Source of the DNA: Candidatus Bathyarchaeota archaeon
GTDB taxonomy: Archaea; Thermoproteota; Bathyarchaeia; Bathyarchaeales; Bathycorpusculaceae
Reading direction: 5' to 3'
Length of the DNA: 64,000 nucleotides
Assembly (NCBI GenBank): GCA_963815095.1
Contig: CAWFFH010000003.1
Coordinates: 992,001 to 1,056,000, forward strand
In this document: positions 4,843 through 62,603 of the stretch, one piece after another
Layout: every line of letters starts with the position of its first letter
Numbering within the stretch: position 1 is the stretch's first letter
The notes under the pieces: model-generated
What the model was told of the DNA's origin: nothing
What the model saw: the letters and a program-made list of their open reading frames with translations, nothing else
The model's database searches: none
Program-made: the position numbers and the translations under genes

Positions 4843-5685
4843 TTGGCAGTTTTCGTAACTAAAGCAGACGGTTCCAAACAGTTATTTGATAAAGAAAAAA
4901 TAGTAAGGACCTGCCAACGAATTGGCGCAAATAGCGAGGTATCTATTCAAGTCGCGCAAGAAGTGGAAAAAAACCTCTACGAAGGCATAACAACCCAGAA
5001 AATCCTTCAAATAATTTTCACCTTAATGGGTGAACACAAACCCGCAGTCAAACACCTATTCGACCTAAAATATGGCATAAGCCTAATGGAACCTAAACCC
5101 GAATTCGAAGCCTTTGTCCGCGTTCTCTTAGCTCATAGCGGTTTTCAAGTTAAACCGAACACGATTCTGAGGGGATTGTGTGGGGAGCATGAGGTGGATG
5201 CAATAGCCACTAAAGATGGCTTAACTTATTTTGTGGAAGCAAAACATCATTTTAACTATCACACCCTGACGGGTCTTGACGAGAGTCGTATAGCTCGAGC
5301 AATCATAGAAGACGTGACAGAAGGCTACGCAAGTGATGCAGCAAAAATCAAAATTGATCGCGCAATGATAGTTACCAACACCCGATACTCCGAGCATGCC
5401 ATAAACTATGGTCGTTGCCGTGGTATTTTTCAGGTGGGGTGGGCTTCTCCTGAAGGTTTTGGTTTAAGAGAGGTAGTGGAGAAACATAAGTTGTATCCTT
5501 TAAGTTGTCTTCGAGGGGTTAGTACGGAAACGAGGCTGCGTCTGGTTGAGGCGGGAATTGTGCTCATAAAGCAGTTGTTGGAACAGGATAGCAGATATAT
5601 TGAAAGGAAAATCGGGTTATCGAACGAAGTTGTTTTGTCTATAATGGAGAAAGCCAGACACACAACAGAAACAATATGGTATTAG
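4843..5685 (+). CDS. ATP-cone domain plus Mrr-like restriction endonuclease domain protein
   Basis: N-terminal V-x-K-x-DG..FDKEKI ATP cone; EVDAIA...VEAK PD-(D/E)xK motif; possible C-terminal HhH. Confidence 0.85.
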   Translation: MAVFVTKADGSKQLFDKEKIVRTCQRIGANSEVSIQVAQEVEKNLYEGITTQKILQIIFTLMGEHKPAVKHLFDLKYGISLMEPKPEFEAFVRVLLAHSGFQVKPNTILRGLCGEHEVDAIATKDGLTYFVEAKHHFNYHTLTGLDESRIARAIIEDVTEGYASDAAKIKIDRAMIVTNTRYSEHAINYGRCRGIFQVGWASPEGFGLREVVEKHKLYPLSCLRGVSTETRLRLVEAGIVLIKQLLEQDSRYIERKIGLSNEVVLSIMEKARHTTETIWY

Positions 5686-6491
5686 GCTTTGAGTGGTTTG
5701 GAGATATCGCCCGAAGAATTCCTTTTGTTTTCTTTGTGTGGGTGTGGGGCGATAATATGGCACATTACCCTTTGGGGTTTGGTTTTTTTTACCTGTTGTG
5801 ATGCAACAGAGGACATGATTGCCATTTTGAGGGTATGGTTGGGTAAATGTGTTTTTTTGGGTTTTTGTGTGTGACAAAAAGTTGTGTTTTGATATGTGAA
5901 GTTTTATGTTTTGTTTGGTGAAATATGGCGGATTGTTCCAATTTAAGATGAATATGTATGTTGCAAATGGGGTTTAGGTTGGGTGATATGGCTGGTTTGT
6001 GGCGGTTTTTGGTAAATCGGTTGTGTTTGGGGTTTTTTCGGTTCCCTATTTTGATGTTTTTTGGCTTATTCTGCCCTGTTTTGGAGCTGTTTTGTCGTAT
6101 CTGGGAGAGTTTCTTACTTAAAAAAGCATAGCGTTGGGCTGAGTATCGGCGAGTAGATAGGTGTGTTAAGAGTTTGGAGCAGACCGCGTGAGAGGGATAG
6201 CGGTTGAGGGCTTGGAGTTCTGGTTTGCGGGGTGGATTGGTTCACACAGTAATGTTGGTTTGTATGTTGGGCTGTGTGGGTGTTGTGTGGAGGGATGTTG
6301 GGTTTTCTATTCCTGTGCCATGTGGAGCAGCCTGATAAACTGCAAAAACGGCAAGCGTGACGGAAAGGTCAGTGCTACTTTTGCCGTGACTGTGGCTATA
6401 TGTTTTCTGAGGGCTCCACAAAAAGCTATTTCTAAGTTGACTAAACAATTACCCACTTAGAAAGAAGAAAATGTATGCTTGAGTTATTAAA

Positions 6492-6716
6492 TCAATATTT
6501 TTCCATTACTTTTCTAGTTGCGATTTCAATATCTTCCACTTTAATGGTTTTTCTTCGGGCATGAATGGAATAATCACGTGCTTCTTTAGCAATTTTAACG
6601 CCAATTTCCTCGAGAACTTTTGCAAGTAACTCCGCTGCTTCTTCACTCACTCTTTCTGCTCCTGCTTTCTTACATAATCTGTGCATTGGAGCCACGGCTA
6701 TTTCTAATTCGTTCAT
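6492..6716 (-). CDS. Archaeal histone (HMfA/HMfB family)
   Basis: [19 protein letters not shown]...[12 protein letters not shown] histone-fold signature. Confidence 0.95.
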
Positions 6717-6840
6717 ATCGACTTTCTCCGCAGTCTCTTTTTATTTTTAAGTCAATATTAAGCTTTGTTATCTATTTCATCATTTTTTAGCAAATTATAA
6801 ATACTAATAGCCACATAAATTGAATCCCGAGGTTATTTTA

Positions 6841-6897
6841 ATGGCAAAGAAACCAGTTAAGAAAGTAGCAAAGAAAGCCCCAGCAAAGAAAAAGTAA
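6841..6897 (+). CDS. Putative 18-aa lysine-rich microprotein MAKKPVKKVAKKAPAKKK
   Basis: Translated by hand; TATA (TTATAAAT ~6795), GAGGT SD and downstream oligo-T terminator; divergent from the histone gene. Confidence 0.6.
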   Translation: MAKKPVKKVAKKAPAKKK

Positions 6898-7093
6898 ACC
6901 CTCGGCAAAGGCATAGTTACCTCTCTATTTTTCTTTTTTTACTCAATAAAATGATCTTTCTTCGGCAAACTTGATGGCACTTCAAAAAATTCACCCTTGA
7001 TAAGTCACCGAATTTGAAGGCGATAAAATCTTTGAAAACGTAAATAACCAACAACCACCCGATGACAGGATTTGTTAAAGGATGTTAAGTGAT

Positions 7094-7113
7094 CTGGGGG
7101 GGATTTGAACCCC
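7094..7113 (-). repeat. att-like direct repeat of the tRNA-Ala 3' part (T-arm/acceptor)
   Basis: CTGGGGGGGATTTGAACCCC is identical to 8077-8096. Confidence 0.85.
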
Positions 7114-7254
7114 TGCCAGAGTGGAGATATCACCCGCAAAACCCCTTTTTTTCAGGTTATGGCTGGAACAAAAATCGCTCCGCATCTCTCATAATGCGTT
7201 TGGCTCGAATTGTGTAATTTGCTGATAAAAATACGGGATTCTACTTTTTGCGGT

Positions 7255-7686
7255 TTAACCTACGATCTGAGTCATGTCTTTGATGATTCCTTTTTCTACT
7301 TCAATGGTCCACAGCATTTCGGGTACGTCAACGATGAGAAATAGGCCGACTGTTAAGATGGATTCGATCGAGGCCACTGCTAGGTTCTGGATGAATTTGC
7401 CTATGCCTATATGAATTGCGAAATTGTTGGGCTGACCCGATATTAGGATGGTGAACGCTCTATTCGCATCGATGATGCCCCGTAAAACTCCAGCTTTCTG
7501 CGCTTGTATGATTATGCCCATAGGATTATTGGTTGACTGTGTTTTATAGCCTTCGGATGATAGTTTCTGAATGATTTGTTGTGATAATTGATTTAAATCC
7601 TTATTTTTTCCTTCAAAATGGATTACTTTCTCAGATACTACATCGTCATGGCCATCAAAATGGAGTGGTATATCGTCATTTGACAA
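7255..7686 (-). CDS. Hypothetical protein (island cargo) with a hydrophobic C-terminal segment
   Basis: 143-aa ORF with GAGG SD upstream of a TTG start. Confidence 0.7.
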   Translation of the reverse strand: MSNDDIPLHFDGHDDVVSEKVIHFEGKNKDLNQLSQQIIQKLSSEGYKTQSTNNPMGIIIQAQKAGVLRGIIDANRAFTILISGQPNNFAIHIGIGKFIQNLAVASIESILTVGLFLIVDVPEMLWTIEVEKGIIKDMTQIVG

Positions 7687-8032: not shown

Positions 8033-8072
8033 CTTTCAAGGGGACCAGGAATCAGTTAAAAAGATGTATCAG

Positions 8073-8146
8073 TGGACTGGGGGGGATTTGAACCCCCGAC
8101 CTCTTGAGTGCAAGTCAAGCGTTCATGCCAGCTGAACTACCAGCCC
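8073..8146 (-). tRNA. tRNA-Ala (UGC)
   Basis: Cloverleaf GGGCTGG/CCAGTCC with G3:U70, anticodon loop CTTGCAC, TTCAAAT T-loop; CCA not encoded. Confidence 0.97.
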
Positions 8147-62003: not shown

Positions 62004-62603
62004 CTATACTGAATCCCATAAATCGGCAGCTTGTTTTTCTATCTTTGAATTCTGAAGACGTTTAATATTTGAGTTCGCTTCAATTGATAGTTTGCAAAGT
62101 ATATCGTATTTTTTCATTAGCACCTTCATATCCGTCGACCAATCCAGGCTATCTGGATAATAAGGAATTGGATAAGTTAGGTATGGACTAACATTTTTAT
62201 TATTCCAGATTGAAACTTTGTCATCATAACTTCCTGCTTTAGTTGCAACCTTATAACCATATTCTTCTAAAAGAACGCCTAATTTTCCCAGTCCTTTTCG
62301 AATTGGCTGAGCGATTATCTCAGGGGAGTTAATTCCATTTTGTGAATAAGCGGAAAGGTAATTGTGTCTATTATCTTGTGATAAATGATACCATAAAGAA
62401 TCGGGGAGGAGAAAATCAGCAACATTTTTCTGTGCATTGTCGGTAAGATCTTTTAACCTTGCCTTGAATTGCGCTAACTGGTTTTTGCCCAAACTTATAG
62501 TATTTTGAGAATCGCTAACAATATAATGCCTTGTGGTTGAATTGAACCAAATAGCAGAAAAAGCAACAGTGGCCTTTATGAATAACTGACGAGTAGCTTC
62601 CAT
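62004..62603 (-). CDS. Hypothetical protein (AT-rich; true start probably TTG 62676 across a frameshift)
   Basis: 199-aa ORF, frame open about 23 codons further upstream; AGGAGG SD before TTG 62676. Confidence 0.6.
   Translation of the reverse strand: MEATRQLFIKATVAFSAIWFNSTTRHYIVSDSQNTISLGKNQLAQFKARLKDLTDNAQKNVADFLLPDSLWYHLSQDNRHNYLSAYSQNGINSPEIIAQPIRKGLGKLGVLLEEYGYKVATKAGSYDDKVSIWNNKNVSPYLTYPIPYYPDSLDWSTDMKVLMKKYDILCKLSIEANSNIKRLQNSKIEKQAADLWDSV

Follow-up and report, generated by a model that had tools for sequence, protein, structure and literature searches.

The window analyzed in this work is a 64,000-nucleotide (nt) stretch of a Candidatus Bathyarchaeota archaeon genome (contig CAWFFH010000003.1), and at positions 6841 to 6897 of its plus strand lies a lysine-rich micro open reading frame (micro-ORF) of only 18 codons. 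Judging from the pattern of substitutions among relatives, the micro-ORF is very probably a real gene under protein-level selection, and sequence comparison places it as one paralogue of a family of 16- to 23-residue peptides in two genera of one Bathyarchaeia family. We named the form present in the window type 1 and a second, shorter form type 2. The explanation that we favor on balance is that of a translated, polycationic nucleic-acid-binding peptide, possibly working on histone-DNA fibres. The gene stands out for its extreme shortness, for the comparative evidence behind it, and for its position beside a histone gene.

A lysine-rich micro-ORF with its own expression signals

Ten of the 18 residues of the encoded peptide are lysine and two are proline, and there is no aromatic residue, Arg, Ser, or Thr. 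As read from the sequence, a KK pair recurs every four residues, and PVKK and PAKK units are present. The net charge is about +8 to +10, and a strongly hydrophobic core is lacking. The micro-ORF and the signals around it are as follows:

6841-6897, plus strand: micro-ORF MAKKPVKKVAKKAPAKKK, 18 codons plus TAA (ATG at 6841-6843, TAA at 6895-6897), read from the sequence
6789-6804, plus strand: promoter AGCAAATTATAAATAC, a B recognition element (BRE)-like AGCAAAT followed by the TATA box TTATAAATAC, from sequence and conservation
6823-6826, plus strand: transcription start, predicted from the position of the TATA box
6827-6832, plus strand: CCGAGG, 5' stem arm, overlapping the Shine-Dalgarno (SD) sequence GAGGT at 6829-6833, which ends 7 nt before the ATG
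6900-6905, plus strand: CCTCGG, 3' stem arm, complementary to 6827-6832 and 2 nt past the stop codon
6928-6940, plus strand: oligo-T stretch TTTTTCTTTTTTT, predicted terminator signal of the archaeal type, from sequence and conservation

The promoter is the best conserved noncoding block among relatives, and the whole 2.69-Mb genome contains the 16-nt motif A[AG]CAA[AG]T[TC][AT]TAAATAC at just two places, each ahead of a lysine micro-ORF. Since archaeal transcription usually starts about 26 nt from the TATA box, the 5' end of the transcript was placed at 6823-6826. The GAGG of the SD sequence is unchanged in all 39 aligned type 1 copies, 7 to 8 nt 5' of the start codon, and a T-run is found at the matching place in every one of these copies as well as in type 2. 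When the whole genome was searched for ATG- or GTG-started ORFs of 14 to 25 amino acids (aa) with at least 45% Lys, four were found, only two of which are preceded by an SD sequence: the micro-ORF of the window and its paralogue on another contig. The micro-ORF is thus more than a chance ORF. A first-pass annotation made from the letters of the window had credited it with a TATA box, a GAGGT SD sequence, and an oligo-T terminator of its own and with a 124-bp intergenic region shared with a tail-less HMf-type histone gene; all of these are present, the intergenic region being 6717-6840.

Conservation of the reading frame among relatives

To follow the micro-ORF in relatives, a 171-nt query (6775-6945) was compared by DNA similarity with 120 genomes of the genus. 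Matches at an E value of ≤0.01 were obtained in 67 of them, 45 at ≤1e-30. The frame was intact in all 30 loci retrieved in this way, 28 of which have the common start sequence while 2 have a variant second codon. A set of 36 distinct type 1 copies was also gathered with a regular expression requiring the promoter, both hexamers, and an open frame. This set is biased toward intact copies because the pattern demanded an open frame, a bias from which the 30/30 figure is free. Furthermore, among 30 loci retrieved with the pattern TAAATAY-GAGG-RTGGCNAAR (promoter, SD sequence, and first three codons), the frame was intact in 7 type 1 and 21 type 2 copies, the remaining 2 loci being unrelated genes. 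As all of these genomes are close kin, copy counts do not represent independent events.

Of the 36 distinct type 1 copies, 19 start with ATG and 17 with GTG, all end with TAA, and all 10 lysines are invariant. Codon 2 occurs as all four GCN codons, and GCN, CCN, and GTN codons in general are free at the third position while the residues remain unchanged, such that the entropy summed over codon positions 1, 2, and 3 is 1.86, 3.66, and 8.04 bits, respectively. Pooled pairwise counts on the 31 type 1 copies of exactly 18 codons gave a synonymous divergence (pS) of 0.33 and a nonsynonymous divergence (pN) of 0.045, corresponding to a pN/pS of 0.14, or 0.06 if the two variable central codons are left out. 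Flanking noncoding columns diverge by 0.34 upstream and 0.31 downstream. Therefore, silent sites drift at about the rate of the flanks, and replacement sites are held.

Insertions and deletions tell the same frame. Within the aligned type 1 ORFs they are of 3 nt only, one codon being lost in five copies and gained in one; a further codon has been lost in locus L222 (−3 nt), and distant relatives carry +3, +6, and +15 nt inside the ORF (L072, L169, and L192, respectively). Outside the ORF, 1-nt indels occur in the SD-start spacer of six copies, and indels of 1, 3, or 4 nt lie between the stop codon and CCTCGG. The start and stop codons are thus conserved, the indels come in multiples of three, and synonymous changes are in excess. 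The first-pass annotation had proposed the synonymous-substitution pattern as a check and had stated that its proposal would fall if relatives lacked a conserved ORF and there were no transcription or translation; the check came out as expected of a coding sequence, and the ORF is conserved.

The opposite strand also carries a reading frame at this place:

6804-6914, minus strand: antisense Phe-rich ORF of 36 aa (MPLPRVYFFFAGAFF...), rejected as the real gene

If this were the true gene, it would encode a small hydrophobic protein, and the lysine frame would be its mirror image. The antisense frame is open in 39/39 type 1 copies, an ORF of at least 25 aa with a similar core being found in 36 of these; it shares its wobble positions with the sense frame, and in the window GAGAGGT stands 5 nt before its ATG. 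Nevertheless, its start shifts between copies to 11, 14, 17, 20, 23, and more nt from the core, and the 1- to 4-nt indels outside the sense ORF move its N- and C-terminal parts between frames, such that CCGAGG encodes Pro-Arg in one set of copies and Arg-Gly in another, and some copies end directly after ...FFAI. Nothing is conserved upstream of it, the sense-strand sequence past the T-run being variable, and of the 67 type 2 copies, only 20, 31, and 0 have an antisense ORF of 25 aa or longer in the respective three frames. We rejected this candidate on account of its moving start, its ends changing frame, the lack of anything conserved upstream, and its presence in less than half of the type 2 copies in any one frame; that it is the real gene is most implausible.

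Two main forms of the peptide family

Type 1 peptides have 17 to 19 aa and read MAKKP(V/A)KKxxKK(A)P(A/V)KKK, while type 2 peptides have 16 aa and read MAKA(P/A)KKxxKKxKKKK. The latter are encoded behind the same promoter core as type 1 and a (T)GAGGT SD sequence and are followed by a GC-rich segment straight after the stop codon and a T-run. The paralogue in the window's own genome is a type 2 gene encoding the 16-aa peptide MAKAPKKEDKKAKKKK (genome G000, contig C5, minus strand, about 62,399-62,449; L182, 3900-3950). Other forms are a 19-aa peptide, MAKDKSPKKEEKKQPAKKK, in one genome (L177 and L178) and a 23-aa peptide with a duplicated KKAPA unit in the second genus of the window's family (L192). 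Similar forms are carried by two public contigs titled Candidatus Bathyarchaeota (L072, 19 aa; L169, 20 aa), and family members also occur on public contigs titled Candidatus Bathycorpusculum.

How widely the family is distributed was examined with several searches. The pattern TAAATAY-N18-30-GAGG-N5-13-RTGGCNAAR was found in 82/120 genus genomes and in 51 of the 73 high-quality ones, a few of the matches being other genes, and a control pattern read backward was found in none of the 120. An exact 51-nt type 2 pattern, searched in one genome per species across 185,579 species, gave 71 loci, 62 with the promoter. Eight of them are bacterial and 63 archaeal; the record titles of the latter name Bathyarchaeota, Bathyarchaeia, or Bathycorpusculum in 58 cases and something else in 5. 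Type 2 entropy by codon position is 3.11, 4.05, and 11.54, where the invariance of Lys, being required by the search pattern, carries no weight. An alignment-based profile search of 301 genomes of the order matched 16 of 147 genomes of the window's family in addition to the window's genome and none of 153 genomes of 11 other families; the search is too insensitive to show absence, since, of the 56 genomes of the window's own genus, it detected only 14. Looser pattern scans mostly listed bacterial Lys-rich proteins and do not delimit the family. Among the matches listed, the N terminus of a longer protein recurred in Lachnospiraceae, which we take to be the ribosomal protein uS11.

Genomic association of type 1 with a histone gene

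The gene next to the micro-ORF in the window is the following:

6492-6716, minus strand: divergent gene for a tail-less HMf-type histone, 74 aa (PF00808/PF00125)

Its product has the makeup of archaeal HMf-type histones, that is, a histone fold of about 65 to 75 aa and no tails. The histone has 1583 relatives at an E value of ≤1e-5, and nearly all of the 120 listed have 73 to 74 aa. No Lys-rich tail was found in the five longer close relatives (78 to 99 aa) that were inspected, and therefore nothing points to a split or a fusion.

In 34 of the 36 distinct type 1 copies, the micro-ORF has a histone gene on its 5' side. The two genes are divergent at 123 to 129 bp in 27 copies, divergent with 322 to 764 bp in 5, and codirectional at 95 to 116 bp in 2; as for the two exceptions, one locus ends at a contig edge, and the other, L106, has no histone gene within 1.5 kb. 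Since the genes on the outer sides vary between loci, the histone gene and the micro-ORF form a stable unit. Type 2 has another neighborhood. It lies 160 to 250 nt upstream of the dihydroorotate dehydrogenase gene pyrD (PF01180), on the same strand, in 15/15 loci scanned (of 24 listed), and the short flanks available in nine further species again show the start of pyrD in the same orientation. On its other side, the neighbor is variable, being a GCHY-1, pterin-binding, CBS, or ECF gene. With pyrD in the place of the histone gene in type 2, the histone link is a property of one paralogue in one genus. The synteny beside histone genes that had been suggested as a check was found for nearly all type 1 copies, whereas type 2, L072, and L177/L178 do not share it.

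Small basic proteins of 53 to 54 aa with four Cys residues (zinc-ribbon-like, MAKCPKCGKEV...) were observed beside some type 1 modules (L010, 2137-2298; L106, 1245-1406; L210, about 1542), the L210 copy having a similar TAAATA promoter.

A putative nucleic-acid-binding polycation

In the reading that we favor, each copy of the family would be a small transcription unit of its own, in which a BRE/TATA promoter specific to the family is followed by a short leader carrying the GAGG SD sequence, the ORF, and an oligo-T stretch. The peptide would be too short and too highly charged to fold and is thus expected to be disordered; it would work by charge, binding and neutralizing DNA or RNA in the manner of the C-terminal domain of histone H1 or of SPKK-type repeats. 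From its composition, the peptide probably acts as a nucleic-acid-binding polycation. The window copy, which stands back to back with the histone gene, would therefore probably be coproduced with its neighbor, with histone-DNA fibres as a possible target. That it acts specifically on chromatin with the neighboring histone is a tentative suggestion.

The likeness to the linker histone tail is one of composition: both are low-complexity sequences rich in Lys, Ala, and Pro, with KK pairs and P-x-K-K units, and in either case disorder and charge-based binding are expected; in addition, the gene described here adjoins one of the core histone type. Unlike H1, however, the micro-ORF peptide has no winged-helix domain and no Ser/Thr before Pro, and it is an 18-residue product of a separate gene, too short for the H1/H5 globular domain or for any other domain. 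Lys/Ala/Pro-rich tails are also known from bacterial nucleoid proteins, including the PAKKA repeats of mycobacterial HupB/Hlp, chlamydial Hc1/Hc2, and Pseudomonas AlgP. They resemble the peptide in repeat composition and in presumed electrostatic DNA binding, but they are joined to folded domains or are far longer, whereas the family described here consists of free archaeal peptides of 16 to 23 residues. The likeness to H1 or PAKKA tails is compositional, and at such a length and composition homology is not demonstrable.

A more specific version, which we consider quite improbable, makes the peptide a tail provided in trans to the tail-less HMf-type histone. The two genes would then share a bidirectional promoter region. 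Docked on histone-DNA fibres, the peptide would neutralize DNA along the fibres or in the gaps separating them, and it would be acetylated at its lysines and recognized by the reader proteins reported in this phylum, while the looped mini-mRNA with its paired SD sequence would tune the amount of peptide per histone. If true, chromatin would here be controlled through tails in a primitive, split form. The idea is kept alive by tailed histones and a YEATS-type reader in Bathyarchaeota, as reported by Henneman et al. 2018 (PMC6136690). The same authors report N-terminal histone tails in Heimdallarchaeota LC_3, Huberarchaea, and Bathyarchaeota B23 and propose that the Lys-containing tails of archaeal histones bind DNA and are modified (PMC6136690). 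In contrast to those proteins, the neighboring histone here is tail-less, and the Lys-rich piece is a separate, divergent gene.

Several observations weigh against the polycation reading or parts of it. First, no histone gene was found near type 2 within the 2- to 8-kb loci retrieved or near L072, L106, L177, and L178. The histone linkage of type 1 may be inherited synteny, or tight linkage seldom broken by rearrangement, because all linked genomes belong to one genus and the commoner type 2 is linked to pyrD. Second, there are signs of constraint on the nucleotides themselves: Lys codons 4, 9, 13, and 18 are always AAA and codon 17 is always AAG in type 1, and in type 2 Lys codons 13, 14, and 16 are frozen synonymously while neighboring Lys codons switch freely. 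These frozen codons suggest an extra nucleotide-level constraint, and avoidance of long A-runs accounts for some of the sites, not all. Third, third-position variation taken alone is no proof of the sense frame, given the wobble positions common to it and the antisense frame. Fourth, the predicted transcript (6823-6945) folds no better than shuffled sequences (z, +0.59), and the stem formed by the two hexamers has undergone no compensatory change among the 39 type 1 copies, 0 of the 10 pairs predicted by folding the alignment showing covariation. Finally, within 6300-7300, contigs assembled from RNA libraries, which derive from relatives 85 to 95% alike, cover 6496-6940 and 7094-7151, with 6682-6940 covered in two studies; as assemblies, one spanning the divergent promoter region and others passing the T-stretch, they may reflect DNA carry-over. 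Two RNA runs each contained 4 to 5% of the sampled words from the region. The RNA library contigs are evidence neither way on expression, strand, or transcript ends.

Accounts of archaeal chromatin usually name histones, Alba, and a handful of other folded proteins. If the polycation reading is right, an abundant 2-kDa polylysine peptide would escape gene callers, Pfam-based surveys, and tryptic proteomics and could alter the packing of DNA or RNA in widespread soil and peat archaea. The family also provides a clean test case, with strong comparative coding evidence at 16 to 19 codons, two paralogues in different contexts, and a histone gene alongside one of them.

The closing stem and a possible regulatory role

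The complementarity between the SD region and CCTCGG had been noticed in the first-pass annotation as a means of closing the ORF into a loop. Pairing of CCGAGG with CCTCGG is possible in 39/39 aligned type 1 copies, a set whose selection pattern allowed C or T at one place per arm. Two one-sided C-to-U changes, one in either arm, and a third in L205 all keep a G-U pair. The sequence of CCTCGG remains constant while its distance from the stop codon varies by 0 to 4 extra bases; in type 1 the arm lies 2 to 8 nt past the stop. As the spacing and the antisense frame vary around a constant hexamer, the hexamer is most simply explained as conserved for pairing with the SD arm. The stem is absent in L072 (19 aa), L169 (20 aa), L192 (23 aa), and type 2 and is therefore lineage specific. 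The complementarity thus held up throughout type 1, whereas covariation and a wider occurrence did not follow. If transcription starts at 6823-6826, the 5' end would lie 1 to 4 nt before the stem, which would then enclose the entire ORF in a loop; once at the stop codon, a terminating ribosome would occupy the 3' arm, so that the stem would open and expose the SD sequence.

An SD sequence paired with a poststop element is what one might look for if the unit were mainly regulatory, with translation of the lysine-codon-rich mini-ORF beside a terminator, or the small RNA itself, serving as a leader or attenuator or sensing the supply of Lys-tRNA or nucleotides. The frozen Lys sites mentioned above would fit such a role, as would the place of type 2 within 160 to 250 nt of pyrD, on the same strand, at 15/15 loci with a variable neighbor on the other side. 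In addition, the GC-rich segment that separates the type 2 stop codon from the T-run looks self-complementary by eye at several loci, and bacterial pyr attenuators have a similar geometry. What separates the two types is a conserved downstream gene on the same strand: pyrD provides it for type 2, but the window copy has none, since the next features are on the opposite strand and differ between loci. Selection acts on the amino acids (pN/pS, 0.14), with the third positions of GCN, CCN, and GTN free, and pyrD in the window's genome appears by eye to have a TATA-like box of its own about 30 nt before its start. Rfam gave no match at 6780-6950 (E ≤ 1); neither a known RNA family, nor stability above that of shuffles, nor covariation marks this segment as a structured noncoding RNA. 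Regulation alone would suit the pyrD-linked type 2 better than the window copy, and as an account of the family we regard it as rather improbable.

Comparison with tiny ribosomal proteins

Tiny basic proteins are also found in the ribosome. According to two reports, eL41, bS22, and mS38 are often unannotated and have been convergently replaced across lineages (PMC7005279 and PMC12123416); the 30-aa bS22, for instance, was formerly annotated as hypothetical (PMC12123416). The micro-ORF peptide might accordingly be a ribosome- or rRNA-bound mini-protein, occupying a niche like that of eL41/bS22/mS38 between h44 and h45 of the small subunit. With those proteins it has in common its tiny size, its very basic character, and its being missed in annotation. 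The family promoter looks strong, and type 2 is widespread in the genus, as would be expected of a core component. Moreover, the eL41 family PF05162 had no match anywhere in the genome, the micro-ORF included, at an E value of ≤10, which leaves the eL41 site without an identified occupant here; this search has low power, since its control passed the cutoff in 0/14 genomes, two archaea among them. A scan for other Arg/Lys-rich short ORFs gave 96 candidates, none of them clearly eL41-like by eye.

The peptide itself is at odds with this explanation. In the same reports, eL41 and bS22 are described as Arg/Lys-rich helices of 25 to 37 aa (PMC7005279 and PMC12123416), whereas the micro-ORF peptides have 16 to 19 residues, with two prolines in the window copy, no Arg, and no aromatic residue. 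Furthermore, none of the copies examined is in a ribosomal gene cluster, the neighbors being histone, pyrD, GCHY-1, pterin-binding, CBS, and ECF genes. A ribosomal role thus appears unlikely.

Annotation status and polylysine micro-ORFs of other lineages

Protein look-up and profile searches were run with the 20-, 23-, and 25-aa forms alone, the last being the TTG-extended ORF of the window. The 23-aa relative, the 20-aa relative, and this 25-aa ORF are all absent from a collection of about 15 billion proteins, in agreement with the suggestion made from the letters alone that gene callers miss the ORF. Pfam returned no family for the three forms at an E value of ≤10, and NCBIfam returned nothing significant for them; the 23-aa relative alone had a weak match to NF050153 (Rv3852 family) with an E value of 1.2 and 9.7 bits against a cutoff of 100. 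The micro-ORF is therefore apparently unannotated. Full-text literature searches, supplements aside, turned up no description of the lysine-rich peptide family.

Lysine-rich micro-ORFs were also observed outside the Bathyarchaeia. An identical 21-aa ORF, MAKKPAKKAAKKAKKAAKKKK, is present in many Cytophagales and other Bacteroidota (L052, L057, L061, L063, L077, L085, and others) and is probably another unannotated polylysine microprotein. In Dactylosporangium, ORFs of 15 to 18 aa such as MAKKSKKDKKKNKKKK each have GGAGGTG in front and, behind, a GC-rich segment resembling a terminator hairpin by eye (L234, L242, L265, L266, L302, L327, L355, L356, and L364), and similar polylysine micro-ORFs occur in other actinomycetes, Woesearchaeota, and Patescibacteria. 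None of those of other lineages examined here adjoins a histone gene. They are probably independent inventions, common descent being not demonstrable, and the occurrence of polylysine micro-genes across lineages that are not related suggests that small polycations form a general class that has been overlooked.

Other features near the micro-ORF

The only tRNA called nearby is a tRNA-Ala at 8072-8146. A tRNA-like piece was seen on the minus strand at 7089-7190, with a GGGGG-TTCAAAT-CCCCC T-arm and an acceptor-like stem, and similar sequence lies downstream of the micro-ORF module in L004 and L007. Neither ARAGORN nor Rfam called a canonical tRNA in this piece, which may represent a remnant or else a tRNA that is split or interrupted by an intron; the RNA library contigs that cover 7094-7151 fall within it. 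On the other side of the histone gene, about 750 bases (about 5700-6460) have a strong excess of G over C and of T over A (GC skew of up to 0.56) and contain no ORF of more than 90 aa. This segment is preceded on the plus strand (4843-5685) by a gene for a 280-aa protein that combines an ATP-cone, an Mrr-type restriction endonuclease core, and an AF1548-like C-terminal domain.

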